From a phage: 64,000 bases of DNA. Both the position numbers and the translations under genes were made by a program. Location of the stretch: the NCBI GenBank assembly GCA_011939005.1, contig GCA_011939005.1_4858.1; one strand, written 5' to 3'. A model generated the notes under the pieces. It was given only the letters and a program-made list of their open reading frames with translations. It made no database searches and had not been told where the DNA came from. Shown in pieces: positions 2,947 to 43,215 of this stretch (the stretch's first letter is position 1; every line of letters begins with the position of its first letter).

Positions 2947-3013
2947 TGGCTGTTTCCTCTAAGGATTCGGGTCATAGTATGAACTCGACGCCCTCAGAGA
3001 AAAGGAGTGTAAA

Positions 3014-19404: not shown

Positions 19405-19426
19405 AAATATACTGGAGCAACCTGCA

Positions 19427-24704: not shown

Positions 24705-24713
24705 TTTCTCTCC

Positions 24714-25355: not shown

Positions 25356-25643
25356 ACTGACCTCATGTCATATAACGCACGAGCATCGTGAGGACCATTA
25401 ATCCCAGTAAAATGGGCATTAAGCCTTTCGGCCAGTCGTCGTTGTCGTATTGCATGGCTTTACCCTCTGACAGAAGATCGTGCGTAATAGTTTGAAGAAC
25501 CCAGAATCGTAATACGTTTCCGGAACAGTTTGTACTTCGGGGAACTTAGGCGGAGTTGGACGGTGGGTCATTACGTTTTCTCCTTGCAGCAAAAACAAGG
25601 GCGCGCCAGATAGCTTTCATTAAGGCAGCAAACCAATTCTGTT

Positions 25644-26348: not shown

Positions 26349-28517
26349 CTATTTCTTTGGCCGCACCCACGGTTTAGGGGCGGATTTGGTATACGGATTA
26401 CATTCCATCATCTTACCGAGGTAGGCATCGTAATACACGAAGCGATCGACATAGAACTTCTCCACCGGTGCACTACTGGTAGCCGATTTCACCCGGTTGC
26501 GTTCCACAGCGAGGCTAATCGCCCCGGTAGGTGCGGGTTTTAGCGTGAACATTACCGCGCGGTTGTAACGCCAAGTGTCGTGCACAATATCAAACTCCGA
26601 TACACAGTGTGCCATGATACCAAACAATGTGGTGGCTGGTAAGTTGGCTACAGCATCGCCGTATGGTGTTCCCACCAAACCGCCGGGTATGTTTTGCTTT
26701 TTGAACAGCGTACCTGAAATAATCGTACCTAAGAACTCCACAACTACAGGCTTGGTTGGGTCGGTGACTTTATCTATCCCATCCGCACTGGCCAATCGGT
26801 TGGCATCTAAATCTGCGAGGTAGTCGAGGAACTCTTGGTACTCGTCGGTAACATTCGGTTTCACCGTTCCGACGGATACCCAGTTGACGATACTTTTATT
26901 CCCACCGACAGCTTCGCCTGCCATCCCAGGGCGAGTCCATGACATCCCGTCTTCACGACCGTAGACATAGACTGGCGAGCCGGTAGCCGGGGTGTTCCAT
27001 TGCTCGAACGCTGTATATCGTCCCGGCTGGCCCCAATCCCCACCCGGACCGCCATAGTAGCGACTCTGGTAGCCGGTAAATTGCGCGACGACTAACTGGG
27101 TAGCACCGCCTTTGTCACGGGACCCAGCTAAGCCGTTACGGTTATTGGTGCCGCTGGGCACCGCCGCGCCTGGCCCGAGAGGCGCACCACCAGCTCCACC
27201 GATCTTGGTGGTGCTAAACGCATAGTAGTCGCCCCCACCCCCACCACCGGCGATGGTGCCGTAGTTTTCGATGGTGACTTTGCCACGGAAGGTATCGCTA
27301 ATGTGGATTGCGTCAGCTCCGTCCGCTGATGTGTTCGCAGGCATAGAGTAGACCACACCCGAACCACCACGACCAAGAATGGTTCCCCGGTTAACGAAGT
27401 TCCAAACCACCTCGCCAATTTGCGGCAATTCGTCGATAACGAACGTCGGTTTCAGGTTGCTGTCGCGATAAACGAAAGCCCCCGCATCTACGGTCACGTT
27501 AACAAACAAACGCCCGCACGCCGCATGGTTGGTCAACGTTGTGGCCCAGTAGCTGTCCGAAAGTTGCGACGTAGTTGTGTAGTTCAGGTTAAGGGTTTGC
27601 TCGTTATCTTGATAGCGTGCTACATTCAACGTGGCACTGCCCATGACTTTGTACGAACCCTCTACGGGTGCCAATTGCACTTGTCTCGGCCACTCGCCTG
27701 CCAGGTTCTCTACAGGAGCAATTTCGTTTACATCAAAAACACTCCGAATGCCGAGTGTCTCGATGGCCAGAGCATCGTGCAGGCTACCGGTGAAATCATC
27801 CGGGACGTATGTGGTTTTGCCTGCATATGTCTCGAGTTTGTTACGTGAGAAGAACACATACTTCGTTCCAAACATCCCGCTCCCCGGTCTAGCGGTCAAA
27901 GCTACGACGCTGTTATACGCAGAGGTTTGGCCTATATCCTCCGGGGACATCGGGGCGCTGACATCGACTTTATCAAGATCCACGATCCGTTTGGTTGCAT
28001 TAGAGTAGAAGTTAATCCACTGCTGCTTATTCGCAGCCTTTAGCGTGAAAATGATATTGGTAACAGTGTAGACAGTGTTGATATCCACGTCACCGTTTAT
28101 CACATCTAGCGTTTGGCTGCCGTACCAGATAAGACTTGTCTGTTTCGCCTGGAACGTGATGCGCGCAGCATTGTTTGTCCAAGTGATGGGCAGGTCTTCA
28201 AAGTCGTCGGTTAAAAAGGTAATCCCTAGTAGAGTGTCTAAATGCGGCAACAGTTCGTGGATGGACGCACAAGTGGGAATGGCATCCAACTTAACCTTGG
28301 CGAAATAATCAGCAATATTTTGCTTCGTGACTTGGGCCGTAATTTGACCGTAACTAGAATACCCCGGACCCCCTGTCAGTGTGACGTCTAGGGTTTTTTC
28401 GTCACGATGCGCCACGGACACCAGGCGTACGTTAGCGGGGTCTACTGCTTTGGCGACCGCGTTTTTACGGTTGAGCGACCGAATCACGGTCGCCACTAAA
28501 TCGGGAGTGTATGACAT
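26349..28517 (-). CDS. fiber-like protein (722 aa) with Gly-rich region; N-domain paralog family
   Basis: RBS AAGG; N-terminal module resembles the array genes; poly-Gly/GGxGG segment. Confidence 0.6.
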   Translation of the reverse strand: MSYTPDLVATVIRSLNRKNAVAKAVDPANVRLVSVAHRDEKTLDVTLTGGPGYSSYGQITAQVTKQNIADYFAKVKLDAIPTCASIHELLPHLDTLLGITFLTDDFEDLPITWTNNAARITFQAKQTSLIWYGSQTLDVINGDVDINTVYTVTNIIFTLKAANKQQWINFYSNATKRIVDLDKVDVSAPMSPEDIGQTSAYNSVVALTARPGSGMFGTKYVFFSRNKLETYAGKTTYVPDDFTGSLHDALAIETLGIRSVFDVNEIAPVENLAGEWPRQVQLAPVEGSYKVMGSATLNVARYQDNEQTLNLNYTTTSQLSDSYWATTLTNHAACGRLFVNVTVDAGAFVYRDSNLKPTFVIDELPQIGEVVWNFVNRGTILGRGGSGVVYSMPANTSADGADAIHISDTFRGKVTIENYGTIAGGGGGGDYYAFSTTKIGGAGGAPLGPGAAVPSGTNNRNGLAGSRDKGGATQLVVAQFTGYQSRYYGGPGGDWGQPGRYTAFEQWNTPATGSPVYVYGREDGMSWTRPGMAGEAVGGNKSIVNWVSVGTVKPNVTDEYQEFLDYLADLDANRLASADGIDKVTDPTKPVVVEFLGTIISGTLFKKQNIPGGLVGTPYGDAVANLPATTLFGIMAHCVSEFDIVHDTWRYNRAVMFTLKPAPTGAISLAVERNRVKSATSSAPVEKFYVDRFVYYDAYLGKMMECNPYTKSAPKPWVRPKK

Positions 28518-28531
28518 GGTGACACCTTAGT

Positions 28532-29851
28532 CTATAGCGCTGGATACCAAGGGACCGGGGCAGTTTTGCTATATGGACTGTAGACCATATAGCCGCCTTT
28601 GCTTGGGTCGTAATAGATGAAATAGTTACAGTAATTCGAGTAGAGGCTCGTCATTTGTTTGGATTGGTATCCGTTACGGTATAGTCCCTGGTAAGTAGTA
28701 GCTGATGTCGTGGTGGTGTAAGCAGTGTGGTACAGTACCCGACGTCGGTTAGCAATACTTTCTTGGAACATCTCTTCGGTCGGAAACGCGTGTTGCATCA
28801 GCCGTCGAATACTCCCGGTACAGTATCGAGTGCCATACGGGGAACCCGTTAAATCATCCGCAGTTTCAGGCGATTCTGCCCGAGTCAACACGTACTCGTT
28901 TTGATACAACGTGACGCTCATCGAATTTGGGCTGGTTTCCCGGAAACTCATGTAACGCGCATAACGTTCGACGTCCTCTTCCTGCGCCAAATAGGCCACG
29001 TTATTTTTCGGACCAAAGTGCAAGAAGAACGGACGGCGGAGATTACCCATATCCTCAGGTGGCGTCAACTTCACGCAGTAATTGTACTCCCCACGCATAT
29101 CAGGGTCTAAGCCTGGGTTGTTATTGCGTGTAGCGACATACCCATAGAGGTCATACGGGTTATCAGTAGCAGCATTACCGATAGTGAACGGGATGCCCGA
29201 CCATGCCGACAGCGCCGCGATGAACTGGGTCATGTACGAGTTACTGTTTAGTCGCAGCGGGGTACCCATCTGGATATTGATTATCTGTTGGGTGTACATG
29301 CTCCAGTCGAGTCGATAGACCGTGCTGTAAACATCCATGGGTTCCCAAGCTCCGGTTTCGGTGGTGTGGTACAAGTCGGCAAAGCTGGGCTCTTCACGAA
29401 TAAAGCTAATAGGAATGTGACCCGTGAATGCGGGGTTATCCGATTTAATCGCCACCGTCCGATCGCCCGTTGCCACAGTGATCATTGCAAACTGGCTGTC
29501 AGGATACGTTAAATCGTCAGCAGTAAGCACCAGCCCACAAGCTGCGGAAATCCGGTCGATGATGTCGCGGTAGACCGTCGCCCGATAAGGTACTTTAACC
29601 GGTACGCTGACGCCTTTAAAATACTGCGAAAGGTTTAAGCGGTCGTAGTAGATGTCCATCTTACCGCTGTAACCACCACCCTGTAATCCGTTTACCACGA
29701 TACGGCTGTTGCGACCATCGCGCAAGGCATTGGTTAAAGGACCTTGTAATAACGCCACGTTGGTTGCGTTGAGCGGTTTCTTGAGCTGCGGGTTATCACG
29801 ATTAATCTGATCCCAAACCAGTTGCATGACAGGTTTGTTATAGTTGATCAT
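28532..29851 (-). CDS. fiber-like protein (439 aa), N-domain paralog
   Basis: Starts MINYNKP..L..QINRDNP, VYYDRLNL motif shared by family. Confidence 0.6.
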   Translation of the reverse strand: MINYNKPVMQLVWDQINRDNPQLKKPLNATNVALLQGPLTNALRDGRNSRIVVNGLQGGGYSGKMDIYYDRLNLSQYFKGVSVPVKVPYRATVYRDIIDRISAACGLVLTADDLTYPDSQFAMITVATGDRTVAIKSDNPAFTGHIPISFIREEPSFADLYHTTETGAWEPMDVYSTVYRLDWSMYTQQIINIQMGTPLRLNSNSYMTQFIAALSAWSGIPFTIGNAATDNPYDLYGYVATRNNNPGLDPDMRGEYNYCVKLTPPEDMGNLRRPFFLHFGPKNNVAYLAQEEDVERYARYMSFRETSPNSMSVTLYQNEYVLTRAESPETADDLTGSPYGTRYCTGSIRRLMQHAFPTEEMFQESIANRRRVLYHTAYTTTTSATTYQGLYRNGYQSKQMTSLYSNYCNYFIYYDPSKGGYMVYSPYSKTAPVPWYPAL

Positions 29852-29861
29852 TGCAACGTCC

Positions 29862-29895
29862 TAAAAAAGAAAATAGGCCCCGAAGGGCCTATTTT
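29862..29895 (-). terminator. rho-independent terminator (UUCG-type loop)
   Basis: Stem AGGCCC / GGGCCT around a 4-nt loop, T-run on minus strand. Confidence 0.6.
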
Positions 29896-30086
29896 TAGCT
29901 GTTATGGTGAAGTACGCTATCCCTTTAACTCCAGCTGCTTCGACGTCAGTTTGGATAACCACGCGGCCGTACGCTTTATTAGCGAAATTGAATCAGCGCT
30001 GATTCGACCTGCGAGTTCAGGGTTATCCCTTACGACTTGTTGGCAGAGCAGTTCCAGTGCGCTATACAATCCCATGAAGTCTCCTG

Positions 30087-30986
30087 TTAAGGCAGAACGA
30101 GTTCAAGTACCGCGATAGAACGTATTGTATTGGTTTCGTATCTACCGTACGACGGCGACTCTGGGTAGGGTGGACGGTTGTACCACTGATTGTAAATGTC
30201 AGACATAGCCGCAAAGAATGCAGATTGTTGGGCAGTAGTCGAATCGATTGAACCGACCGGAAGGTCGTCAAAGCGCGGCAACTGCCCACTGTAGTTGTAC
30301 AGGCGCGCGAAAGTGTTAAACCACTCACCGTCGAGATACAACTCACTGTTACCGCTTCTAACGTTAGTCGTCCAGAATCTGTAGTCGAACAAATACGGCA
30401 AGCGCACCACGTATTCGTAACCGTTCTTCGCCACCGTGCGGCGTTGGTTACGTGCAGTGGCCCAGCTCGGTACAAATCCATTGCCATCCTGGCCGTACAT
30501 CAGCCCCTGGTTATAAATGAACTGCGGGCTAGCGTATATTATCGAGTTATCGGACATAAACAGAATACGGTTTTTGTAAATGAATTTATGCCAGGCACCA
30601 ACGGCGGAACTGAACATATTCACCACGAGGCTGTTCAGTTCCGCGTTAGTGAATAACTCTGCTGGCGTTACTGTTCCAAAGTATCCAGCGTGCCAGTCGC
30701 CGTATAACAGCTTCTGGGGGCCAGGCCCGGTGTCTAAAAAGAACCCTTGGGCGGTAGGGGTGTTGAAGACACGCTCACCGTCTTTAACCGCAGCTATCCA
30801 ATAACGGTAAGTGGTGTTGTTTTCCACAGCGTTGTCTTCGTACGATGTAGCGTCACCCGGAAGGGTTGCCAGAGGCGTTCCCGGTGCATTAACATCAATG
30901 GTGGCGTTGCCCGGCGTCTTGCGATAGATTTCAATGTTATCGAGCGCCTGTGGCTTCCGTTGTGCAAAGTTTAATGTAATAGGCAT
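30087..30986 (-). CDS. fiber-like protein (about 300 aa): FN3-like N-module plus GPGP module
   Basis: Internal ATG overlaps stop of upstream gene; TTYRYW..AVKDGER and DTGPGPQ motifs. Confidence 0.55.
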   Translation of the reverse strand: MPITLNFAQRKPQALDNIEIYRKTPGNATIDVNAPGTPLATLPGDATSYEDNAVENNTTYRYWIAAVKDGERVFNTPTAQGFFLDTGPGPQKLLYGDWHAGYFGTVTPAELFTNAELNSLVVNMFSSAVGAWHKFIYKNRILFMSDNSIIYASPQFIYNQGLMYGQDGNGFVPSWATARNQRRTVAKNGYEYVVRLPYLFDYRFWTTNVRSGNSELYLDGEWFNTFARLYNYSGQLPRFDDLPVGSIDSTTAQQSAFFAAMSDIYNQWYNRPPYPESPSYGRYETNTIRSIAVLELVLP

Positions 30987-30988
30987 GA

Positions 30989-31978
30989 TTAATCCTCGAT
31001 AAGCTCGATTACTGGAATCCAAATACCGCCCACGGTCGCACCAGGGACATGTTGTATACGCTGGAGGTTATCCACGGTATCAGTGGAATCCGTCGTCGCT
31101 GTTCCGCGCGTCAGCCCCAACTTACGGTCTGGGTCAAACTCCTGACAATGCACCCCACGGCCACTCACCACCGATCCATTTCCGAATATGCTGATGTTCG
31201 ACCGCGTTAACAGGGACATCACTTTTTTCTTTGCTGGGAACCAGGTACTTATCCCATAGATGAGTCGGTTGTATTCGCTATCGGCAGTATACGGTGACAC
31301 GTCATGGATTTTTCCGTCCCACTGTGCATCGAGCGCCATGACCGGACTTTCACTGTCGTGTGTTAAACCGCGCAGCAATCGCATCCGATAGCGGTCACCC
31401 AACCACGTAAACTCCCCAGACTGGTCAACGTCAGGTAAATCACCATGACCGCCTTCCGGACCAGGTCCCGCCACACCGTACAGCAAACCCGCGTTATAAA
31501 TCGCATCACGGCTATACAGCGTGTTGCCGTTCACACGAAGACCACTAAGCAGATACAGAATTTTACCGTCTAGCTGGAACTTAAACAAGTACAGCTTAAC
31601 AGTTGGGTCAATTCCAGAAAGGGCCACAAACCCTGGCGGATAATCACCCACGCTAGGCAATTCATCGTACGCCACATTCCCGTAATACGCAAAGCGGTCA
31701 TCACCGTACTGTGGAGTCACGATGCCGATACCGCGACGGTTCTGAATCAGAATTGATTTCTGCGGACTGAACAGTGTCCGGCTTCCCACTGTCACGGTGG
31801 TCATGTAGTAATACGTTGTCCCCAGTATCGCTGTTCGGTCAGTATACTCAGTTTCCCCGTTAGTGAACGTTGCCAGAGGTTCAGGTAATGCCGTACGCAC
31901 CAGAGGTTTGGTGTCGCGGTACAGCTTCACGGTCGAAGCCCCAGGGTTATTGTTCGTCCAACGAATTGTAAAAGCCAT
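30989..31978 (-). CDS. fiber-like protein (329 aa): FN3-like N-module plus GPGPEGGHG module
   Basis: Starts MAFTIRW; paralog of 34434-35432. Confidence 0.55.
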   Translation of the reverse strand: MAFTIRWTNNNPGASTVKLYRDTKPLVRTALPEPLATFTNGETEYTDRTAILGTTYYYMTTVTVGSRTLFSPQKSILIQNRRGIGIVTPQYGDDRFAYYGNVAYDELPSVGDYPPGFVALSGIDPTVKLYLFKFQLDGKILYLLSGLRVNGNTLYSRDAIYNAGLLYGVAGPGPEGGHGDLPDVDQSGEFTWLGDRYRMRLLRGLTHDSESPVMALDAQWDGKIHDVSPYTADSEYNRLIYGISTWFPAKKKVMSLLTRSNISIFGNGSVVSGRGVHCQEFDPDRKLGLTRGTATTDSTDTVDNLQRIQHVPGATVGGIWIPVIELIED

Positions 31979-31990
31979 TGTCGTTACCTC

Positions 31991-33487
31991 TTATTGGAAT
32001 CCATCCAACTCACCGTTAGTATCGCCCAGAGTAATTTTTGAAGGTTGGGCGATTTGGTCAGTCGTGAGAATAATCGGTCTAATCTTAACGCTAGCCATGC
32101 CTGTTACCGCGACGGAATATGCACGTTCATCATTGTCCGTCGTGGCAAGCAGAGGACGTGGTGAGTCTGATGACGCTTCCCGTACCCAGGCAGGGGTGGC
32201 AGTTTCGGTGTTGTCGGTGTTGAAAACTAACGGACGTGGATTCGCTGCAGCGGAGGTTTCCGTAATCGGCACCACACGAAGCGATTCATTTTGGTCGATG
32301 TCCGTCAGAGTAACCACGGACGGTGCCCATGTTAGTTCTGCACCTTCGTCAATCAACGGCACAGGTTCATTGGCAACATCAATCATCTCCAAGATTGGCC
32401 AAAAGCCAGAAGAGGTGTAGATGTAGGTGTATGAACGATAGCTCCCACTGATAGACTGGTAATACGCTTGGTCGGCACCGAACTGGTGTCGTAACCACAC
32501 GTAATCCAGGAAGTTAGCATCAGTCGTGCTAAGAGTTCCCCATTCCCCATATACGTTCACCGACCCCAATTTGCTGGTCAGTGACAGGATAGAGGTGATT
32601 GACGGCGGTTTACTCCAATCAGGCGCGGCGGCGTTCTCGGTGTAATACGGGATAGACATTCTGAAATAATGCGTTCCTTCATCATCCCGTTTTACCATGT
32701 ATTTCAACTGTTCAACATCGACAGGTGTGTAAGTCGACTTCGGGCGAGGTCCTGCGTCTCCGGAATCAAATATTGCACCCTTGTTGTACAGGTCTGCCCA
32801 GGTAACGTTGCAAATCGCACGGGTCGGAACAAACACTACCGCCCCATTCAGAAAGAATTTGAGCCACTTGATAGCGTAGCGGTTAGGCCAGTTGGTGCCG
32901 TTATAGAGGGCATACACCATTTCATCAGATGTGAATAACTCTTCCGCGCTTACCAGCCCAAAAAATCCGTATAACTCATTACCGGCCATTAATCCTTTTG
33001 GCCCAGGGCCCGACTTCGGATACATCGCAATCGGTTCGTAAACATAGGTCATCTTGCATGACCCGGTATAGCACAAGGAGTTAGCGTGCGCCGTCAGAGT
33101 TACAGTTTCTGGCGTAGCGTATTTCATTAATGCAACGTTTGGACTGGTGATGTCACTCGCGGTTAAGTTCAACCCGTTCAATTCATTGAACGCCGGTAAC
33201 GCTTCCGCATGGGTTTGTGCGCTACGTGGAATACTCACCATCTTCGGGCCAGACTTGAACAGACTGGCCAGATTCAACCGGTCGTAATAGACCGTTATTT
33301 CCCCAGCAAATCCTTTACCGGGTTTACCTACCAACGTAATCTGTGTGTTTCGTCCGTTAACGTTTTTCGCAACAGGAACACCCCTGACCCCAATGGAGTC
33401 AGCGGTGATTTTTCCTGCTAAACCGGGATTGTCACGCACAATTTGTTGGCAGAGCAGTTCCATTGAAGGTTCTGTATACAACCCCAT
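31991..33487 (-). CDS. fiber-like protein (498 aa): N-domain, GPGP module, C-terminal NGELDGF
   Basis: RBS GGAG; VYYDRLNL, SGPGPKGL, ends TNGELDGFQ. Confidence 0.6.
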   Translation of the reverse strand: MGLYTEPSMELLCQQIVRDNPGLAGKITADSIGVRGVPVAKNVNGRNTQITLVGKPGKGFAGEITVYYDRLNLASLFKSGPKMVSIPRSAQTHAEALPAFNELNGLNLTASDITSPNVALMKYATPETVTLTAHANSLCYTGSCKMTYVYEPIAMYPKSGPGPKGLMAGNELYGFFGLVSAEELFTSDEMVYALYNGTNWPNRYAIKWLKFFLNGAVVFVPTRAICNVTWADLYNKGAIFDSGDAGPRPKSTYTPVDVEQLKYMVKRDDEGTHYFRMSIPYYTENAAAPDWSKPPSITSILSLTSKLGSVNVYGEWGTLSTTDANFLDYVWLRHQFGADQAYYQSISGSYRSYTYIYTSSGFWPILEMIDVANEPVPLIDEGAELTWAPSVVTLTDIDQNESLRVVPITETSAAANPRPLVFNTDNTETATPAWVREASSDSPRPLLATTDNDERAYSVAVTGMASVKIRPIILTTDQIAQPSKITLGDTNGELDGFQ

Positions 33488-33500
33488 GGCTTTTACTCCG

Positions 33501-34424
33501 TTACGGTAAGACTAATTCAAAAGCAAAGAATATCGTGGCCGAGTTCCCGACACCTGCGGTGTTACTAATCACCATAGGCACGGTGCCATACGCATAAGCG
33601 AATATGTTGTTGCTCCACAAAGGAGCTAATACAGCGGCACCTGACTCATTCGGCTGCACAGTCGCGCCTTGTCTTGCAAGTGAGTCAATCGCACCAAGAC
33701 CGAGGGCTGCGAACTGTGCACCGACAGGATACAAACGGCCCATTGTGTTTCGCCATTCACCGTTGTTGTAATCCTGTCCTGAGAGAACAGCGTCGTACGG
33801 GACTGCGTAAGGTAATCGGATACGGTACGTACGACCATCCTTCGTGACCTTACAATCTTGTTTAGTCGCCGTGGCTCCCTGCGGAACAATACTTCCGACA
33901 TCATCGGTCCCGTACATCATACCGTACTGATACGCCATTTGTACCGAGTTGGTTTTCGAATGCATCGTCGCTGGGAAGAAGACAATTCTCCCACGGAAAA
34001 TAAACTTGTGCCATTCCTGAGGGTCGTAGACAAACATGTTTCCCTGCTGTGCAGTCAACATAAGCTTCAGCTCGGCGGTATTAAAGAACTCGGTATTCGG
34101 TACTGTACCGAAATAACCTGAAGCCCAGTCACCACGCAAAATAGTTTGCGGACCCGGCCCGGTGTCCGGATAGAATCCTTGCGTAATCGGATTGCCGATA
34201 AGTCGTTCACTGTCCTTCACAGCAGCTACCCAATAACGATAGGTTGTATTCTTCGTCAGAGTATCGATATTATCTACGAACTCTACCGCGTTGCCCGATA
34301 AAGTTGCGTGGGGTGTGCCTGGATTGTAAACGTCGATTGTTGCGTTCCAACCTTCCTTGCGGTAGATTTCAATCGCGGTAAGACCTTTGCTGGCTTGGGA
34401 CGGCCAGCTTAACCGTATAGTCAT
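33501..34424 (-). CDS. fiber-like protein (307 aa): FN3-like N-module plus GPGP module
   Basis: Starts MTIRLSW; TTYRYWVAAVKDSER; DTGPGPQ. Confidence 0.55.
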   Translation of the reverse strand: MTIRLSWPSQASKGLTAIEIYRKEGWNATIDVYNPGTPHATLSGNAVEFVDNIDTLTKNTTYRYWVAAVKDSERLIGNPITQGFYPDTGPGPQTILRGDWASGYFGTVPNTEFFNTAELKLMLTAQQGNMFVYDPQEWHKFIFRGRIVFFPATMHSKTNSVQMAYQYGMMYGTDDVGSIVPQGATATKQDCKVTKDGRTYRIRLPYAVPYDAVLSGQDYNNGEWRNTMGRLYPVGAQFAALGLGAIDSLARQGATVQPNESGAAVLAPLWSNNIFAYAYGTVPMVISNTAGVGNSATIFFAFELVLP

Positions 34425-34433
34425 GACTGCCCC

Positions 34434-35432: not shown

Positions 35433-35443
35433 AGATGATACCT

Positions 35444-36934
35444 CTACTTAAAGCCGTCCAGTTCACCGTTAAGAGACGTTAACGTTGTCTTGTCAGGGGG
35501 CGTATACATTTCAGCGGTAGCCGCAATAGGTTGAAAATCGACAGTCTTCGGCAGCATTAATGCAGGCGGATGCAGTGCGAAACTGTTTTCTGAAGTAACG
35601 GCCACAGGTTGAAAATCGACAGTCTTCGGCAGCATTAATGCAGGCGGATGCAGTGCGAAACTGTTTTCTGAAGTAACAACTACCGGTTCGAAATCGGTAG
35701 TATCTGGATTACCGAGCACCAACGGCTTGAGACTAAACGTGTTTTCTGCGGACACGCTGCACGGTTGGAGGCTGTAATCTACCGCGCCGTGGATATCTTC
35801 TAAGCCCAAGGTAACCGTGGACTTATCCACCAACTCCAGCACCGGGAACCAGTAGTAGTTGCCCGCACTCGATGATTTTTCTAAGTTTGTCCAACTTGCT
35901 CCAGACAACGTCGCCATGCGATGATTGGCGACGTTGGTGTTCAGTGTATCTTTCAATAAACAGAACAGCGTCCAGTAACTGTTAATCGGTTTGTCCCACG
36001 TTCCATTATACAGAAAGTTGAACATCTCAAACTCACTACCTGCTAACTCAGCGGCAGTTGGGGTGCCGCTGACGTATGGGTCTTTCCCGGCACTAGGTAG
36101 ACGAACGCGGAAGTAAAACCTTTTGTTGTCTGCGCCTGTAAAGCTAATGATGCGTCCCTGGTTAACGGGCGTCGCCGCAGGGTATTTACCATTATCATCT
36201 GTTCCGTAAACGAGTCCGTTTGTATATAACGTATTCCAGGAGATGGAGCTAGCGACAGGACTGATCGGAAGGTAAATAACCCTACCCTGGTAAAAGAACT
36301 TGTACCAACCTTCGGCACCAGAATGTACCGGTGGTAACGCACCGGCCGATATAGTGGCATTAAGAAGTTGAGAGTGTGTAAACAACTCTGCAATTGTGGT
36401 TGTTCCGAAATAACCCGCGATAGTGTTACCTTGCAGCAACGTTTTAGGGCCAGGTCCAGAATCGGGGTAAATTGCACCGCTCGGGACGGTATAACGTATC
36501 GTTAAGCTGCCTATAAACGCAGGGCAATTACCTGAGATATTTAATTTCAACGTCTGCGGCGAAGCGCTCGGTTTAGGTAAACTTGCGTCAGGTGACTGCA
36601 AATCAGAAGCAACTAATGTAAGCCCCAATGCGTCGTTTATTGCAGGTAGCGCGTCTCGTACCGTTAAGACTGTATCTTTGATAGCCACAGTCGGCACAAA
36701 ATTAAATAAAGTGGCCAGGTTAATCCGGTCGTAGTACACGGTAACATTACCTTGTACACCTGTCCCTGGATACCCGGTGAAAACAGCTTTGGTGTTACGT
36801 TGGTTTAACGTAACTGAAGTTGGGCCGCTGGTTAAAGCAGCGATAGCCGGTGTCAGCTTAACAACTAAATCAGGGTTATCCCGATTGACTTGGTCGTATA
36901 CAAGCAGTGCCGACTCCTTCGAGTAAAATAGCAT
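35444..36934 (-). CDS. fiber-like protein (496 aa): N-domain, GPGP module, internal 26-aa tandem repeats, C-terminal NGELDGF
   Basis: VYYDRINL; DSGPGPK; repeated KTVDFQPVAVTSENSFALHPPALMLP; ends NGELDGFK. Confidence 0.6.
   Translation of the reverse strand: MLFYSKESALLVYDQVNRDNPDLVVKLTPAIAALTSGPTSVTLNQRNTKAVFTGYPGTGVQGNVTVYYDRINLATLFNFVPTVAIKDTVLTVRDALPAINDALGLTLVASDLQSPDASLPKPSASPQTLKLNISGNCPAFIGSLTIRYTVPSGAIYPDSGPGPKTLLQGNTIAGYFGTTTIAELFTHSQLLNATISAGALPPVHSGAEGWYKFFYQGRVIYLPISPVASSISWNTLYTNGLVYGTDDNGKYPAATPVNQGRIISFTGADNKRFYFRVRLPSAGKDPYVSGTPTAAELAGSEFEMFNFLYNGTWDKPINSYWTLFCLLKDTLNTNVANHRMATLSGASWTNLEKSSSAGNYYWFPVLELVDKSTVTLGLEDIHGAVDYSLQPCSVSAENTFSLKPLVLGNPDTTDFEPVVVTSENSFALHPPALMLPKTVDFQPVAVTSENSFALHPPALMLPKTVDFQPIAATAEMYTPPDKTTLTSLNGELDGFK
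35524..35684 (-). repeat. 78-bp period tandem direct repeat inside the 496-aa gene
   Basis: Two copies identical over 71 nt (GGTTGAAAATCGACAGTCTTCGGCAGCATTAATGCAGGCGGATGCAGTGCGAAACTGTTTTCTGAAGTAAC), flanked by degenerate copies. Confidence 0.85.
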
Positions 36935-36942
36935 AGGGACTC

Positions 36943-36978
36943 CGCATCGCCAAAAGAGGGGGCTCCGAAGAGCCCCTA
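36943..36978 (-). terminator. rho-independent terminator (UUCG loop)
   Basis: Stem GGGGCTC / GAGCCCC around TTCG, T-run on minus strand. Confidence 0.6.
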
Positions 36979-36981
36979 CAC

Positions 36982-37809
36982 TTAGCTGTTATAGTGGTAG
37001 TACGCCACGCCTTTCACGCCTTCCTCATCGATGCCCGTTTGGACAACCACGCGGTCGTACGATTTGTTAGCGAACTGAGCGGTGGATGTCGGCACATCCT
37101 GAACGGTGTTGCTGTTCAGTGGCCCCGCGTAGTTCGGAATACCCAGGTCATCCAACACCTTACGCAATCCAGCCCACTGCGGTAGGCCAGAAGCATCTAC
37201 TGTCAGTAGGTTTTTATACGCGGTAAAGTCAATACCATACGTCAACAAATCAATACACTTCTTACCGAGAGACGGTGAAATAGGCTCTTGAATCGCATTC
37301 AAGACATCCGATTTCACCGAAGTGTCTAGTACCGGTAAACCACGGTTATAACGCAACGTCGCAGAACCGATATAAGCCGGAGATGTCGATAGCGCTACGA
37401 TGTTCTGTGTATTGGTGTAATTTGGGGTATTGGGACCCGCCAGTGGGAGGTTATAGATATCGATTGCAGAGAAGTTTACTCCGTAAGTATCCAAGAGCAC
37501 CGAAAAGGCTGAATGGAGGTTGGGCGCGTCAAACGTGACGAACTGCGCCTGGACAGAAGGACCCCACGGCAATAACCGCGCTAAGTTCACACGGTCGTAG
37601 TAAACGGTGATTGCGTCTCGAAATCCGGAACCCTGAATACCGCGCAAGCGTGCCGACGTATTGCGGTTGTTGGAAGCTGCATTAACGGGAACCTGTGTCA
37701 CTTTCTCCACGTAGCAGTTTGCCGGCGACGCTTTAATAGGTAGGTTTGGGTTATCCCGGTTAATGAGGTCAAAGACCAACTCGTTTGACGGCTTAGCATA
37801 GTTGATCAT
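36982..37809 (-). CDS. fiber-like protein (about 275 aa), N-domain paralog
   Basis: ATG at second codon of tracked ORF with GAGG RBS; starts MINYAKPSNELVFDLINRDNP. Confidence 0.55.
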   Translation of the reverse strand: MINYAKPSNELVFDLINRDNPNLPIKASPANCYVEKVTQVPVNAASNNRNTSARLRGIQGSGFRDAITVYYDRVNLARLLPWGPSVQAQFVTFDAPNLHSAFSVLLDTYGVNFSAIDIYNLPLAGPNTPNYTNTQNIVALSTSPAYIGSATLRYNRGLPVLDTSVKSDVLNAIQEPISPSLGKKCIDLLTYGIDFTAYKNLLTVDASGLPQWAGLRKVLDDLGIPNYAGPLNSNTVQDVPTSTAQFANKSYDRVVVQTGIDEEGVKGVAYYHYNS

Positions 37810-37812
37810 CAA

Positions 37813-38700
37813 TTATACCTCGCTTGGATCGTCCAGATCGTTGAACTGGAGATACAACGTTCCGACGATGGTGGTACAGGTAACAGGCAGTTTCAACGCC
37901 AGCACATACTTGTACTTCGCGTTTGTCGGCATTGCAACAGGGTCATTCAGACCAACACTGATAACCTCCGCGCCCGCCAAACCGTAGGAAGCGGAAGTGG
38001 TCGCTACCCATGCAGTACCCGTGATATCTTTCAGCAGGTTAACCATATCCGTTAACGGCTGTCCGGACAGAATACCCGGCTTGTATGCCAGCAGAGCATC
38101 TCGGTACTTAGTGAAGTTGTACGGGTAGGAATAAACCTCTGCAATGACCGCAGTAACATTTTCGGAACCCATCTGACCGTTCGGGTATTTCAGACCGGTC
38201 AGGACGTTAGTGGTGACTGCAGAGACTAACGACTCATCACCTTTCACGACTTTAAATGTCGCCTGTCCAACCCAACCGATAGACTCTGGATGTGCAACAA
38301 CACGCACAGTACCTTCGGTCTTATCACCGTTCCATTCGATATCTGCGTCCTGCAGGTCAGCTTCTTCCAGAACAAAACCGTAACGTTGGTTCAGTCCAGG
38401 AATGGCCGCATACAAGGTTTCGTTGGATGGGCCGATCGCCAACGTGTCACCGATCAGCACTAACAAGTCTTCGACTTTCATGCGGTTGTAGAAGACATTT
38501 TTCTTACCCGACCAGGTAGAGCCCGTTACCCCATCTGCCGTAATTTTAATTTGCGTGTTACGGTTAGTCAGCGTTTCCTTCTCCGTACCACGGATGTCCT
38601 TTGGCGAGGACCAGATGATGTCAGTCATCTTAACAGCAAGCGAGTTCTGTGCGTTCACTGCTGCCAACAGGACGTCTTTAGAAGGTTGATAAATAGCCAT
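37813..38700 (-). CDS. fiber-like protein (295 aa), N-domain paralog
   Basis: Contiguous with neighbours, no intergenic gap; family N-terminus. Confidence 0.55.
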   Translation of the reverse strand: MAIYQPSKDVLLAAVNAQNSLAVKMTDIIWSSPKDIRGTEKETLTNRNTQIKITADGVTGSTWSGKKNVFYNRMKVEDLLVLIGDTLAIGPSNETLYAAIPGLNQRYGFVLEEADLQDADIEWNGDKTEGTVRVVAHPESIGWVGQATFKVVKGDESLVSAVTTNVLTGLKYPNGQMGSENVTAVIAEVYSYPYNFTKYRDALLAYKPGILSGQPLTDMVNLLKDITGTAWVATTSASYGLAGAEVISVGLNDPVAMPTNAKYKYVLALKLPVTCTTIVGTLYLQFNDLDDPSEV

Positions 38701-38710
38701 TCGCTAATTC

Positions 38711-39550
38711 CTAGTTGTTGTAGTGCAACATACACTCGCCGATTACTTTCGGGTCGTTCTGAATGCCGGTAATCAGCAATACGTTATCGTACGCTTTATT
38801 GGCGGTCGCCAACTCACTCGTTTTGTAGCGGGTAATTGTGCAGTTCGTCGGATCAAACGACGGTACCCCACGTGCGACCAATGTGGCCATCAGATTGGAC
38901 GTGTAACCCAAATCAAAGTTACTTCCTACATCCATTCGCCCGTTCTTAAACGAGGCCATAACCTGCACTTCATCGGTAAAGTCTTCCCCGTACGTCAAGA
39001 AGCCCATGTATTTCTTACCAGTGCTTGCTGCTGCAGGGTGGTTCAAAGCCAACAAGATGTCGTTTACCACGAGGTCTTCGAGGCTATTCTTACCCCGGAT
39101 AGACATAAAGGTGATGCTGCCAGTGTATTGGATACAGCTAGCGTTAATACGCATCGTGTTGTTTACGTTCAGATAAACGTATTGTTCTGGGATATCATCT
39201 GCAACCAGGTTTAATCCATAACGACCGTTCAGGTTCTGCGCAAACGCAGTACGTTTCGACTCCACGTTCAACCAACCGTAGGCATTCGGTGCAGTTACCT
39301 GAGGTGTCATGTTCTTAAATAAGTCGTTCAGCGACAAGCGCTTATAACGGAACGTCTGGGGACCGATATAGCCACGACCTTGACGACCACGAATGATAAT
39401 CTCAGTATTGGCACCGCTTGCTGTCGGTGTGATTGCTTTCGGCGTACCGATGATAGCATTGTCTAAACCCATCGGTAGCACAGCATCCGGGTTTTCGGCA
39501 TTAATCGCATCGTACAGATATTGTCGCTGAGACAGACTATATAAAGCCAT
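38711..39550 (-). CDS. fiber-like protein (about 279 aa), N-domain paralog
   Basis: Internal ATG with RBS GAGGAGG; ends LHYNN. Confidence 0.55.
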   Translation of the reverse strand: MALYSLSQRQYLYDAINAENPDAVLPMGLDNAIIGTPKAITPTASGANTEIIIRGRQGRGYIGPQTFRYKRLSLNDLFKNMTPQVTAPNAYGWLNVESKRTAFAQNLNGRYGLNLVADDIPEQYVYLNVNNTMRINASCIQYTGSITFMSIRGKNSLEDLVVNDILLALNHPAAASTGKKYMGFLTYGEDFTDEVQVMASFKNGRMDVGSNFDLGYTSNLMATLVARGVPSFDPTNCTITRYKTSELATANKAYDNVLLITGIQNDPKVIGECMLHYNN

Positions 39551-39569
39551 AATAGCCTCCTCGGCCAAA

Positions 39570-39612
39570 AAAGAAAGGAGTAGCCGGGAGGAGGATTTCC
39601 TCCTCCCAGCGA
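39570..39612 (-). terminator. hairpin, possible intra-operon terminator/attenuator
   Basis: Stem GGGAGGAGG / CCTCCTCCC with AAAT loop; T-run follows after a short spacer on minus strand. Confidence 0.45.
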
Positions 39613-39619
39613 GGCCTAA

Positions 39620-40531
39620 TTAGGCATTAAAGTGCAGGTACATGATGCCCTGGAAGTTGGTGCACAGAGTGTCATCCAGCTGCAGCAGCAGAACCTGGTT
39701 GTAAGCAGTGTTTGCACCTTCAACCGGTTTCTTAGGTTCGTCGCCTGAAGCAGTGCCATCGTCAGTAGTAGAACCAACGTACAACACGTTAGCACCTTTC
39801 AGGTTATAATCCGCAGGCTCATCAGATGCAACCCACAGTTCCGGCACAACTTTATTCAGCTCAACCGGGAATGCAGAGTCGCCAGCGATAACACCTTTCG
39901 CCTGTACTTTCAGGAATGGTGCGATTGCTGTGCAGTCTACACCGTAAGAGTAGATGTAACCCTGACCCTTCGCTTCGCTTGGACCATCTGGGTAAACCAG
40001 GCCGTCGAGCTTGGTTTGTGTTACCACCAGACTCAGACGTTCACCAACCTGAGGCTTAGCACCGATTTTAACCGGGATGCTGCCCAGATAAGCGTAGCAG
40101 TCTTCTTTGAAGGTAATGACGTGGTCAACCGGTGCTGGGTCCGGATCGTTCGGGTTAGTCAGCGGCGGGTTGGTATTTTCCGGAATAGCCGCCGGAACAA
40201 TATCATCTTCGGTCAGTTTCAGACCGTATTGGGTGTTCAGGGTCGTCAGCAGGTCGGTGGTGGTTTTCGGCAATTTAACGTCGAGGTATGCCGTTACATT
40301 ACGGAACAGCGCACCGCCTTCCAGGCGATTATAAGTCACGTCCTGAGTACCGATGTACCCGGAGTTCTTTTTCGCAGTCAGGGTCATGCTGGTATTGCGA
40401 TCAGCACCTTCATCGCTAATAGGGGTCGGTGTGCCGAGCGTTATTTTAGAAAGTTCCAGTTCTGCGTCTGGGTTTTTCTCATTAATAAAATCCAGAACCA
40501 GCTTATCTGACGTTTTGTTTAAAGGTTTCAT
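39620..40531 (-). CDS. fiber-like protein (303 aa), N-domain paralog
   Basis: RBS AAGGAAG; ends LHFNA. Confidence 0.55.
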   Translation of the reverse strand: MKPLNKTSDKLVLDFINEKNPDAELELSKITLGTPTPISDEGADRNTSMTLTAKKNSGYIGTQDVTYNRLEGGALFRNVTAYLDVKLPKTTTDLLTTLNTQYGLKLTEDDIVPAAIPENTNPPLTNPNDPDPAPVDHVITFKEDCYAYLGSIPVKIGAKPQVGERLSLVVTQTKLDGLVYPDGPSEAKGQGYIYSYGVDCTAIAPFLKVQAKGVIAGDSAFPVELNKVVPELWVASDEPADYNLKGANVLYVGSTTDDGTASGDEPKKPVEGANTAYNQVLLLQLDDTLCTNFQGIMYLHFNA

Positions 40532-40552
40532 TCTTACTTCCTTTACTCAGGA

Positions 40553-41398
40553 TTAATCAGGGTCGTTGTAATGCAAATACAAACGCCCGCCAAAATTCAG
40601 ACAGTACAACGACAGCTCCACAATCAGCACGTTGTCGACTGCTGGGTTGGTTGGTAATTCCGCTTTGTTACGCCCGTTATAGACGACGACGGCTTCACGA
40701 AGGTTAAAGTCGATTGGGTTACGGTACGTTGTCCAGTTATCACCGGTGACCGTTTTGAGAATCTGCGCCAGACGTTCTGCGGTTATCGCAGCACCTAGTC
40801 GTTGAAATTCCTCCGCGAAATTATCAAAGCGCCAGGGATACGAATAAACTGCACCTTGACCGACCTTGATGTTAAAATACGGATACTCGTAAGGCATCAC
40901 TGTTAACGGTTCGAAGTTTGCAGGAAGCAACGCATCGCCTGGTAACAGCTGTACCTGTTGTTGCCCTATCCAACCTAAAGAAGAGGGCGTGGCAATCAGA
41001 TCCACACGCCATGTCTTCCTGTCGATTTCGGTATTCACCACATCTGCAGGTTTAAGGCTGAGACCGTAATACTGGTTAATTAACCCGACCACGTCATGCA
41101 TCTGGTAAACAGCATCGAGACGTGCAGGAACACGTAAAGGTTGAATCCCGTCTGGGTCGGTAAACATGTCTGCGAAGTCAACACGATCGTAATAGACGGT
41201 AGTGGCACCGATAGCATTAGCCGTGGCCAATGCCTGAATGCGCACCATCGCGTTGTGACCGTTAGCTTTTGCCAAGTCTTCGTCAGACGTTGGAATCGCA
41301 GGGACACCAAAAACAACATCCTCGACTTTTAAATCGAGATTGTTTTCGACGTTAACTTCCGCGATAATAATCTTTTCAGCTGTGGCTAAAAGTGGCAT
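40553..41398 (-). CDS. fiber-like protein (281 aa), N-domain paralog
   Basis: RBS AAGGA; ends LHYNDPD. Confidence 0.55.
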   Translation of the reverse strand: MPLLATAEKIIIAEVNVENNLDLKVEDVVFGVPAIPTSDEDLAKANGHNAMVRIQALATANAIGATTVYYDRVDFADMFTDPDGIQPLRVPARLDAVYQMHDVVGLINQYYGLSLKPADVVNTEIDRKTWRVDLIATPSSLGWIGQQQVQLLPGDALLPANFEPLTVMPYEYPYFNIKVGQGAVYSYPWRFDNFAEEFQRLGAAITAERLAQILKTVTGDNWTTYRNPIDFNLREAVVVYNGRNKAELPTNPAVDNVLIVELSLYCLNFGGRLYLHYNDPD

Positions 41399-41408
41399 GT
41401 CAAAATCC

Positions 41409-42251
41409 TTATATCGGGAGATAATGAAGGATGAGATTACCGGCGTAGTTGCTGTCCGCAGCTAGCTTGATAATCGCCACACGCTGATAATCGGGGTTGT
41501 AACTATCGTTCGGTGTGACTGAAGTTATCCCCATAAATCGTGCACCTTGGAGTGCAATTTGTTCAGGTTGCGCATTCGCCCCCGTCACATATGCAAACTT
41601 TAATGGCACCACTTCATTCAACAACTCAACATCCGCTGCAGTGATTGCACGGTTGTAAACCCAATCGGTGGTGAACTGTTTTTGCAGTTCAGTCCAATCG
41701 TAACCATACGCCACATACTCGGCCTGTGGTTTACTAGCAACCACGAACGGTGCGATTATTGCGCTGAGGTCAACATCCGTCACCACATCCGCCAAGTTCG
41801 GGAAGAACTTCGCAAAGCGTAAACGGAAACCACCTTGCCAGGCCAAGCAACCGGGCTTAATAGTCACATCGATTAACCAGCTTTCTCCCAAATCTTTTAC
41901 TGACTGGTCAACGATATCGTCGGCAACTAAAGACAAGCCGTATTTCGCATTCAGAAACGGCAACAACTCAGAGAGTTTATTTACCGGGTCGGCAACGACT
42001 ACCGGTATTACGTTCCTGAACAGAATTTCCATTTCGATACGGTCGTATTCGAGCGTAACGTTGCCTTTGTAGCCCTTGCCGTTCAACCCGTATAAGAGCA
42101 CACGTGTATTCCGGTCAGCGCCAGGCGTTTGGACAGACTCAGGGAAGCCAGTTGCAACCTGCTCCCATGTGAGTGGATTGGCCGTTAATCCGTTCTGTCG
42201 GTTAATAGCATCTAACAACATCTCTTTCGAGGGCTTATCGTAAATAGACAC
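41409..42251 (-). CDS. fiber-like protein (280 aa), N-domain paralog
   Basis: Apparent GTG start with AGGAGG RBS overlapping upstream stop. Confidence 0.55.
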   Translation of the reverse strand: MSIYDKPSKEMLLDAINRQNGLTANPLTWEQVATGFPESVQTPGADRNTRVLLYGLNGKGYKGNVTLEYDRIEMEILFRNVIPVVVADPVNKLSELLPFLNAKYGLSLVADDIVDQSVKDLGESWLIDVTIKPGCLAWQGGFRLRFAKFFPNLADVVTDVDLSAIIAPFVVASKPQAEYVAYGYDWTELQKQFTTDWVYNRAITAADVELLNEVVPLKFAYVTGANAQPEQIALQGARFMGITSVTPNDSYNPDYQRVAIIKLAADSNYAGNLILHYLPI

Positions 42252-42261
42252 CTATACCCTC

Positions 42262-43059
42262 CTAGTTGTTAAAGTGTAAGTTGAGGCTGCCCTGGAAGTT
42301 CGTACATTTATCGGTCAGTTGCACTGACACGACTTTCGCGAACGCCGTATTTGCTCCCGGTAAGTCTGCAGGTACGCCGTCGAATACGACAGTAGCACCA
42401 CGCAAGTTATACGGGGATGGGGTATCTTCAGCCACCCAAATCTCAGGAACACATTTGTTGAGTTCGATTGCTAACGCCGTGTCATCTACTTCGATACCGA
42501 CCGCTAAGAGGCTCAGGAAACGAGAGATGTGGCTACAATCGATGTCGCGCGAATAGATATACGCCTGACCCAACTGGATGTCCTGGTGATCCGGGTACAG
42601 AAGACCGCTCAACTCTGTATTGGTTATTACTTCTGCCAGAGGTGTAGCAGGTTTCAGCTCGATGACCGCTTGACTTCGCCACTCGTGGGAAGTTTCAACA
42701 GCAACGACTGTGTGAGTCTGTCCATCAATGGGGTTATCTTCGATATCCTCAGGTAAGATAGACAGATTAAAACGCTCGTTAATCGCCGCGAGTAAGTCGT
42801 GCGTGGTATGCACATCTTCATCGCCAAAGGCAACATCGCCTGTAAGGTAGTCCTCTAATGGACGACGATGATAGTCCACAATCACTTGCGTACCTTCATC
42901 ACCGCGCATTTTCGAGGTTAGTACCACCTCCGAATCACGACCGTCTACTGACACAACCTCCGGCAGTCCGATATCAACATCGTCAAAGGTAAGCGGTGGG
43001 CTTATCTTATTCTCTTCGTTGATGAGTTTTAGCAGATTCTGTTTTGAAGTAAAAGACAT
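42262..43059 (-). CDS. fiber-like protein (265 aa), first gene of the paralog array
   Basis: Starts MSFTSKQNLLKLINEEN; ends LHFNN. Confidence 0.55.
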   Translation of the reverse strand: MSFTSKQNLLKLINEENKISPPLTFDDVDIGLPEVVSVDGRDSEVVLTSKMRGDEGTQVIVDYHRRPLEDYLTGDVAFGDEDVHTTHDLLAAINERFNLSILPEDIEDNPIDGQTHTVVAVETSHEWRSQAVIELKPATPLAEVITNTELSGLLYPDHQDIQLGQAYIYSRDIDCSHISRFLSLLAVGIEVDDTALAIELNKCVPEIWVAEDTPSPYNLRGATVVFDGVPADLPGANTAFAKVVSVQLTDKCTNFQGSLNLHFNN

Positions 43060-43184: not shown

Positions 43185-43215
43185 AGAAGGGGAGCCGAAG
43201 CTCCCTTTTCTTCAC
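43185..43215 (-). terminator. rho-independent terminator
   Basis: Stem GGGAGC / GCTCCC around a 4-nt loop with flanking T/A runs. Confidence 0.55.

Follow-up and report, generated by a model that had tools for sequence, protein, structure and literature searches.

A tandem array of fifteen DUF7941-family paralogs in an SPN3US-related phage: a possible chain-forming virion family displaying adhesin-type modules

RESULTS

Fifteen members of a known paralog family lie in tandem

The stretch of phage DNA analyzed here (64,000 nucleotides of contig GCA_011939005.1_4858.1, GenBank assembly GCA_011939005.1; "the window") carries 15 abutting open reading frames (ORFs) between positions 26349 and 43059, all on the minus strand and encoding proteins of 265 to 722 amino acids (aa). 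A preliminary description based on the sequence had pictured them as an uninterrupted array of modular, fiber-like paralogs, and the array was confirmed. No unrelated gene stands between its members, so that "uninterrupted" holds in this sense, but there is a 235-bp gap at 29852-30086 in which lie the remnant of a truncated gene and a strong terminator-like hairpin. Three of the ORFs, delimited mechanically, have overlong starts; according to the annotation of SPN3US and EC001, two phages introduced below, the likely genes are 30087-30986 (299 aa), 36982-37809, and 38711-39550.

The similarity among the proteins reflects paralogy and not composition, as judged from all-versus-all BLASTP (E values down to 1e-73, 22 to 42% identity) together with matches to the Pfam family PF25613 (DUF7941). 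Eleven of the 15 proteins exceed the PF25613 gathering score of 27 bits (E = 2e-23 to 8e-87, 83 to 292 bits). Seven of these (36982-43059) cover the full 276-position profile, with E values of about 1e-68 to 8e-87, and the other four match only its N-terminal half, having kept either the N-terminal domain (NTD) alone or the NTD plus a linker motif. The remaining four proteins match no Pfam family, PF25613 included; they combine an FN3-like N domain with a 220-residue domain, named X here, that they share with the two proteins of ~497 aa (BLASTP). Two outlying genes suspected to be relatives also belong to the family (22920-23447, E = 4e-11, 43 bits; 50790-51323, E = 4e-17, 63 bits). When domain hidden Markov models (HMMs) built from the paralogs were run against all window ORFs of at least 80 aa, no further members were found.

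At the nucleotide level, the array is 97.8% identical to that of Salmonella jumbo phage SPN3US and 98.1% identical to that of Escherichia phage vB_EcoM_EC001 (EC001), both of the genus Seoulvirus. The SPN3US array comprises 18 genes (RefSeq gp111-128, which correspond to gp155-138 in the numbering of the published papers, used here; the published masses agree with this mapping). Fifteen of the 18 are present in the window in the same order, with proteins 91 to 100% identical, and the outliers are orthologues of gp160 and gp122. By sequence, the array is thus SPN3US paralog family B, a set of known virion structural proteins. The preliminary description rightly called the expansion unusual, but it is not new: Thomas et al. 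(2016; PMC5105663) had already noted that the array might be the largest paralog family of any phage. The family was named by Ali et al. (2017; PMC5694885), who counted 20 members, gp83, gp160/161, and gp237 among them, and listed gp122 as a possible addition. The published list (gp83, gp138-154, gp160, gp237, and possibly gp122) does not include gp155. We recognized the 722-aa gp155 orthologue as a family member from its sequence, which contains two DUF7941 NTDs and a Gp38 domain.

The family combines seven module classes

Domain comparisons divided the family in the window into seven module classes, A to G (Table 1). The modular picture was correct in that a common N-terminal module, either the DUF7941 NTD or FN3, is joined to variable C-terminal modules, and it could be refined for the 722-aa protein, in which domain HMMs detect two tandem NTD copies. 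The suggestion that these are classical fiber proteins was not borne out. Their models consist of globular domains and disordered linkers with no trimeric fiber repeats, and no fiber or spike Pfam family was matched by the array and outlier proteins except for the GP38 domain. The NTD has the fold of the solved structure of PhiKZ gp127, which the family profile matches in the PDB (E = 8e-25). An AlphaFold 2 (AF2) model of the 307-aa class C2 protein was confident (predicted local distance difference test [pLDDT] score, 92.9), and its N domain has the FN3 fold, a seven-stranded beta-sandwich. In the AF2 model of the 498-aa class B protein, the NTD and X are folded (pLDDT, ~90) and residues 380 to 498 are disordered (pLDDT, ~30).

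Domain X had no match when its profile was compared with PDB sequences and none in Pfam; even at E ≤ 10, Pfam searches with the isolated X, middle, and CT2 domains returned nothing meaningful. According to structural comparison of the models, X probably adopts a C-type-lectin-like fold. The structural matches came without aligned residues and were tentatively assigned to X because its order of secondary structure elements fits and because no confident fold match for DUF7941 alone was obtained by the authors of a preprint on phage Goslar (10.64898/2026.04.21.720040). X differs from known C-type-lectin-fold binding modules (the Bdellovibrio Bd2740 fiber tip, Treponema TvpA, and intimin) in having no sequence-level similarity to them, in its length of ~220 residues with large insertions, and in that no diversity-generating retroelement was seen here. 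The domain is widespread, occurring in 1,742 protein clusters (E ≤ 1e-3, 1.84 billion representatives). Among these are giant multi-X proteins that also carry Laminin_G_3, Kelch, or BspA-LRR domains; several are encoded on contigs of 240 to 275 kb, the size of jumbo phages. Between orthologues, divergence is faster in X than in FN3 or the NTD (with phage Huxley, for example, 59% versus 85% identity).

The 722-aa protein carries a Gp38 region that scores 65.7 bits against a PF05268 cutoff of 25 and has weak PDB matches to S16 gp38 (6f45_D) and to 9v85_A (E = 0.005). The likeness to T-even Gp38 (S16 gp38, PDB 6F45) lies in the glycine-rich receptor-recognition region. The profile match begins at position 61, leaving out the attachment N-terminal domain (approximately the first 60 positions): the part that attaches Gp38 to the tail fiber tip is replaced by the two DUF7941 NTDs, and a CT2 domain is added at the C terminus. 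A further difference from T-even Gp38 is that the SPN3US orthologue, gp155, was found on heads. CT2 is common to the 722-aa and 439-aa proteins (BLASTP, residues 614 to 717 and 334 to 435, respectively; E = 2e-5).

A conserved C-terminal peptide resembles the class A linker

In class A proteins, the NTD is joined to a C-terminal domain (CTD) by a linker with the core motif [TS]-x-x-[EK]-L-[DS]-G-[LF]. This linker is the best-conserved class A segment between orthologues, with identity typically of 85 to 100% versus 50 to 90% for the flanking domains. We compared protein C termini across eight genomes of four genera (Seoulvirus relatives, Machinavirus, Erskinevirus, and Derbicusvirus) and found NGEL[DNST]GF at the end of class B proteins, apart from one orthologue in Huxley, and of most short class F proteins. 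The ~100 residues before this peptide, termed the leash, are hypervariable. NGELDGF resembles both the class A linker core (TQTKLDGL and TNTELSGL) and the linkers of Goslar gp34 (KELDGL) and gp23 (NVADGF), the latter being an NTD-plus-linker protein with no CTD. The motif is too short for HMM detection in the tails. With a position-specific scoring matrix (PSSM) made from class A linkers, the C-terminal site ranked among the top 1 to 6 of 170 to 500 positions in most class B and F proteins.

On the basis of this match, the PSSM rank, and the conservation of the linker between orthologues, we read the peptide as a putative "plug" that would dock on an NTD "socket." Class B proteins may then be understood as having cargo and a leash inserted between socket and plug. 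In EC001, the gp160-type orthologue (2551-3099 of the compared locus, L002) ends in "...LGGFGGEGHAGM" in place of TNGELDGFV. This ending is probably due to a frameshift, either real or a sequencing error, that would remove the proposed plug peptide.

Three-gene cassettes turn over while class A genes persist

The class B and FN3-X genes are arranged in three-gene units, or cassettes, each consisting of a class B gene (NTD-X-leash) followed by a C1 and a C2 gene. BLASTP similarity follows position within the cassette (42% between the 307- and 299-aa C2 proteins and 40% between the 332- and 329-aa C1 proteins), indicating that the cassette was duplicated as a whole unit. Comparison of genome sequences shows that it is also gained and lost as a unit: there are two cassettes in the window and EC001, three in SPN3US, SEGD1, STsAS, Huxley, and phiEaH2, and one in CR5. 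Relative to SPN3US, the window is missing 3.3 kb corresponding to the gp151-153 cassette (blastn breakpoints), with a 90-nt scar in its place. SPN3US has a different class B 5′ remnant, "MGFYSSTALELLCRLIQRDNPQHAGRISWS" followed by a stop, in the gap before its 439-aa gene (approximately 15592-15677 of the compared locus, L001), implying that a fourth cassette has been lost; the EC001 stub in the gap before the 439-aa gene is still shorter. On a smaller scale, a perfect 78-bp tandem duplication in the leash makes the gp145 orthologue in the window 26 aa longer than its counterparts in SPN3US, EC001, and SEGD1, which have one copy fewer (470 aa).

Duplication and module exchange, as proposed in the preliminary description, are therefore visible in the differing cassette numbers (1, 2, or 3), the deletion scars, and the fusion of a Gp38 domain to the NTD. 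The idea of a fast-diversifying repertoire, however, does not extend to the seven members of 265 to 303 aa. In Erwinia and Cronobacter phages, these have one-to-one orthologues arranged in the same order, and each is 44 to 84% identical to its own orthologue versus ~25% between paralogs. By this comparison, the seven class A genes are old and individually conserved.

Four terminator-like hairpins flank the array or split it into three blocks, one with the seven small genes, one with the cassettes, and one with the 439-aa and 722-aa genes. A sigma-70 promoter scan was uninformative (16 sites versus 22 in shuffled sequences); phages of this group have their own RNA polymerases. Of phages from other genera, STsAS (31957-34220 of the compared locus, L004), Huxley (31605-32713, L005), and phiEaH2 (33320-34433, L007) have two or three tandem short genes encoding an NTD plus ELDGF versus one in the window, and STsAS is without the 439-aa and 722-aa genes.

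TABLE 1 Family members and associated features of the array in the window
Feature	Position	Strand	Evidence and remarks
Class A, full DUF7941 (NTD-linker-CTD), 265 aa, gp138 orthologue	42262-43059	-	PF25613 E = 6.6e-68; HMMs NTD 2-135, CTD 144-265; 100% aa identity to SPN3US
Class A, full DUF7941, 280 aa, GTG start, gp139 orthologue	41409-42251	-	PF25613 E = 1.2e-70; domain HMMs
Class A, full DUF7941, 281 aa, gp140 orthologue	40553-41398	-	PF25613 E = 7.4e-79; domain HMMs
Class A, full DUF7941, 303 aa, linker TQTKLDGLVYP, gp141 orthologue	39620-40531	-	PF25613 E = 3.8e-84
Class A, full DUF7941, 279 aa, gp142 orthologue	38711-39550	-	PF25613 E = 1.7e-79; start per SPN3US annotation
Class A, full DUF7941, 295 aa, gp143 orthologue	37813-38700	-	PF25613 E = 2e-81
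Class A, full DUF7941, 275 aa, gp144 orthologue	36982-37809	-	PF25613 E = 7.6e-87
Class B, 496 aa, gp145 orthologue; NTD 1-149, X 157-370, Pro-rich disordered leash, C-terminal LNGELDGFK; first gene of cassette 1	35444-36934	-	
Class C1, 332 aa, gp146 orthologue; FN3 1-82 and X	34434-35432	-	BLASTP, domain HMMs; phrog_1062
Class C2, 307 aa, gp147 orthologue; FN3 1-87 and X	33501-34424	-	AF2 pLDDT 92.9; FN3 fold
Class B, 498 aa, gp148 orthologue; NTD, X, 120-residue disordered leash, TNGELDGFQ; first gene of cassette 2	31991-33487	-	
Class C1, 329 aa, gp149 orthologue; FN3 and X	30989-31978	-	BLASTP, domain HMMs
Class C2, 299 aa, gp150 orthologue; FN3 and X	30087-30986	-	BLASTP, domain HMMs; annotated start
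Class D, 439 aa, gp154 orthologue; NTD, middle domain, C-terminal CT2	28532-29851	-	PF25613 E = 3.9e-26; phrog_6409
Class E, 722 aa, gp155 orthologue; NTDs 1-139 and ~179-304, Gp38-type glycine-rich adhesin domain 373-553, CT2	26349-28517	-	PF25613 E = 2e-23; PF05268 E = 7e-18
Class F outlier, 175 aa, gp160 orthologue; NTD and linker ending TNGELDGFV, no CTD (Goslar gp23 type)	22920-23447	-	PF25613 E = 4e-11; phrog_4862
Class G outlier, 177 aa, gp122 orthologue; NTD only; directly upstream of tail-protein locus	50790-51323	-	PF25613 E = 3.6e-17
Deletion scar, 90 nt, first 30 codons "MGLYSALELLCQQVVRDNPELAGRISADSI" of lost class B gene (gp151-153 cassette)	29986-30075	-	blastn breakpoints, translation
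Perfect 78-bp tandem duplication in Pro-rich leash of 496-aa protein	35528-35696		1.9 copies, 100%
Terminator-like GC-rich hairpin and T run	43190-43205	-	Intergenic
Terminator-like GC-rich hairpin with T-rich tail, between the seven class A genes and the cassettes	36959-36976	-	Intergenic; consensus match only
Terminator-like GC-rich hairpin, strong; 11-bp stem then T run, just upstream of 439-aa gene	29870-29895	-	Intergenic
Terminator-like GC-rich hairpin and T run	26272-26293	-	Intergenic

In SPN3US, the bulk of the family is found with tailless heads

Every SPN3US array protein was detected in triplicate virion preparations (Scheuch et al., 2023; PMC10052503, Table S2). Virion association has thus been shown by mass spectrometry for orthologues 91 to 100% identical to the proteins encoded in the window. 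In heads of an SPN3US tail-tube mutant, purified through two CsCl gradients, all 18 array proteins as well as gp160 and gp83 were present at 0.9 to 1.7 times the wild-type level, and true tail proteins were down to ≤7% (PMC10052503). An independent gp64 mutant showed the same retention of the family on heads (PMC5105663). Only gp122 and gp237 behave as tail proteins in SPN3US: gp122 was seen in tailed virions alone, with 7 peptide-spectrum matches (PSM) in the wild type and 0 in tailless heads (PMC10052503), and we estimate it from PSM per kDa at ~6 copies. The most abundant full-length member in SPN3US virions is gp141, for which our own rough estimate is ~375 copies per virion, and gp160 is the second high-abundance member. 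Within each cassette, the SPN3US data give roughly equal PSM per kDa.

The receptor-binding role proposed in the preliminary description is suggested by domain content only, and SPN3US proteomics place the proteins on heads and not on tails. The place of the family on the particle is in dispute, since the Goslar preprint (10.64898/2026.04.21.720040) proposes a baseplate "fiber cloud" and the SPN3US data say head.

DISCUSSION

A possible chain-forming family displaying adhesin-type modules

We propose, with a probability of roughly 0.5, that the array encodes a chain-forming, socket-and-plug virion family that displays adhesin-type modules outside the particle for adhesion to the host surface. 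The ~150-residue NTD would act as the socket, and the short linker that follows it would act as the plug by docking on the NTD of the next subunit, such that subunits polymerize head to tail into flexible chains. The chain would be built by the seven class A subunits and the abundant short class F protein, and the other subunits would carry cargo. Class B proteins would do so with an NTD, X, a Pro-rich leash of ~120 residues, and the NGELDGF plug. The two FN3-X proteins of a cassette have neither socket nor plug; X-X association would probably bring them in, making three X domains per cassette, and the 722-aa protein would show its Gp38-type outer membrane adhesin domain on two sockets. Most of the family would sit on the head, with a few NTD-only members on the tail, and the particle exterior would adhere to the host surface multivalently and with low affinity. 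External exposure and adhesion are suggested here by domain content only.

Filament formation has been demonstrated in vitro for one distant homologue, Goslar gp22, which when purified forms filaments in negative stain. In the same preprint (10.64898/2026.04.21.720040), AlphaFold 3 predicted head-to-tail docking of linker to NTD for gp22 and for gp23, and DUF7941 proteins were among the most abundant virion proteins. Goslar gp22 and gp23 have the Pfam family, the NTD-linker-CTD plan, and the linker core motif in common with the window proteins, and in both phages the two most abundant members are one full-length and one CTD-less type (gp22 and gp23 in Goslar, gp141 and gp160 in SPN3US). Sequence identity, however, is low. 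The 10 Goslar members are scattered in the genome and fused to glycoside hydrolase, carbohydrate-binding, or leucine-rich repeat (LRR) domains, whereas those in the window form a tandem array and carry X, FN3, and Gp38-type modules.

T4 Hoc and the fibers that phage 7-7-1 bears on its capsid offer precedents for Ig/FN3-type and binding domains displayed on a capsid to make weak multivalent surface contacts, in these cases as single proteins bound directly to the capsid lattice. What is proposed here differs in being a polymerizing adaptor family of ~20 paralogs, and no lattice contact was seen. A literature search for "hairy" SPN3US-type virions turned up unrelated phage lineages only.

A fuller version of the proposal, which we regard as doubtful, would make each cassette a heterotrimeric lectin-like "head" of one NTD-X and two FN3-X proteins. 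The ELDGF plug on its leash would fit any DUF7941 socket, so that adhesin heads, including the Gp38-type one, would be clipped combinatorially onto chains hung from the capsid, and cassettes would be swapped.

Several observations weigh against a chain-borne adhesin display on the capsid. The PSSM scores of the putative plugs are weak (1.6 to 5.5 bits), and the tail was not docked in cis in the AF2 monomer of the 498-aa protein. No fibers have been reported on SPN3US capsid reconstructions. Near-identical arrays occur in phages of E. coli, Proteus, and Salmonella hosts, and the array is therefore no obvious determinant of host range. Finally, copurification with tailless, DNA-filled heads fits an internal location equally well, as does the near-wild-type level of classes A and F in prohead preparations from protease-minus mutants.

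Alternative locations and roles

An internal location would make these head proteins that are packaged either as ejection proteins or as sub-vertex "antlers" and act in the host after injection. Besides the head association, the occurrence of classes A and F near wild-type level in DNA-free prohead preparations of protease mutants speaks for it. In addition, Ali et al. (2017; PMC5694885) labeled gp141, gp143, and gp160 "Head ejection?", supplementary-table notes read "gp160 Head, antler" and "gp141 ?antler," and the estimated copies of several members (~55 to 60) correspond to 5 × 11 to 12 vertices. However, tails and flagella were present in the prohead preparations as well, so that copurification is possible; PhiKZ gp127 is external; and FN3, lectin-like, and Gp38 domains, like the glycoside hydrolase, carbohydrate-binding, and LRR fusions of Goslar, are typical of exposed host-binding proteins. 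We consider an internal role unlikely. Its antler form was likewise set aside as unlikely, since the vertex-binding, sub-vertex complexes of PhiKZ and Goslar, now resolved, consist of other proteins that are not DUF7941.

The fiber cloud of the 2026 Goslar preprint would instead have all DUF7941 chains begin at six peripheral baseplate sites and extend outward as very long, host-searching filaments. PhiKZ has only ~3 family members, among them gp126 and gp127 (PDB 9XQD, chain 0), and gp127 is a six-copy baseplate component modeled at the tip of each lobe of the baseplate star (PMC13250141); a gp126-gp127 dimer fits unexplained density nearby (10.64898/2026.04.21.720040). The tail association of gp237 and of the NTD-only gp122, with its ~6 copies, agrees with this arrangement, and the array itself sits between lysis and tail genes and not among head genes. 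The closest functional counterpart of PhiKZ gp127 in the window is more likely to be the NTD-only class G protein than the array. The retention of the 18 array proteins, gp160, and gp83 on SPN3US tail-tube-mutant heads, with which the gp64 mutant agrees, is hard to square with baseplate anchoring, no DUF7941 density was present in the Goslar baseplate maps (10.64898/2026.04.21.720040), and the preprint does not cite the SPN3US data. We find the fiber cloud quite improbable.

Passive capsid decoration or cement with no host binding, as hexamer-center density or "wings" and with the extra domains as evolutionary baggage, would suit the unassigned external protein at each of the 260 hexamer centers and the intercapsomer wings of the SPN3US capsid, the few hundred copies of gp141 and gp160, and the one-to-one persistence of seven class A paralogs across genera, as expected for fixed structural positions, but it is very unlikely given that high-resolution Goslar and PhiKZ capsid maps assign decoration to other families and contain no ordered DUF7941, that Goslar gp22 makes long filaments and not lattice-bound monomers, and that the turnover of cassettes, like the faster divergence of X, points to an interface that faces changing selection.

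Neighboring genes

Immediately downstream of the NTD-only gene is a 719-aa ORF (48631-50790, minus strand) that shows no similarity to SPN3US at the nucleotide level and occupies the place of SPN3US gp124 (a 1,005-aa tail protein) and gp123 (a 156-aa "tail fiber protein"). When it was compared with 50,697 phage records, no part beyond its first 39 aa found a match, and these matched the N terminus of a tail fiber protein of Erwinia phage Asesino; it matched no Pfam or PHROG family; and among 5.8 billion proteins, the sole hit was one 99%-identical cluster, which came from Salmonella Enteritidis assemblies. Judged by these comparisons, an orphan receptor-binding-protein gene seems to have been swapped in here behind a conserved N-terminal adaptor, and this ORF may be the most novel gene in the window.

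A lysis-type cluster (24189-26261, minus strand) adjoins the array and includes an endolysin (GH108 in the STsAS annotation), a DUF1353 protein annotated as a "tail assembly chaperone" (phrog_1158), and a second endolysin-like protein (phrog_894). A few kilobases from the array, on the plus strand (19391-21662), are two genes with radical-SAM domains (SPN3US annotation), followed by a DUF4376 gene.

In Huxley (12815-14617 of the compared locus) and phiEaH2 (12842-14659), an "EPS depolymerase" gene lies immediately upstream of the first array gene, and the Gp38-bearing gene is absent from these Erwinia phages. We rejected this depolymerase as a family member, since it has no DUF7941 NTD at E ≤ 1e-3 and is a neighbor only. 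The arrangement suggests that host-specific binding or degrading genes are parked at the edges of the array.

Implications

There is no discovery in the array itself, which has been known from the literature since 2016, is covered by a Pfam entry, and received a functional model in 2026. What this analysis adds is secondary, namely the cassette as a unit together with its scars, the conserved candidate plug peptide, the widespread and probably lectin-like domain X, the Gp38-bearing member, and an explicit statement of the conflict between head and baseplate. A family that has been proposed as a baseplate fiber cloud has been placed on tailless heads by three proteomic studies of SPN3US, and one of its members bears a bona fide tail-fiber-tip adhesin domain. 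If correct, a head-borne, plug-in display of adhesins would reconcile the head proteomics of SPN3US with the host-binding domain content of the family. Should the chains indeed hang from the capsid, the cassette, leash, and plug anatomy would provide concrete constructs for testing, and this group of jumbo phages would be capturing hosts with their heads.

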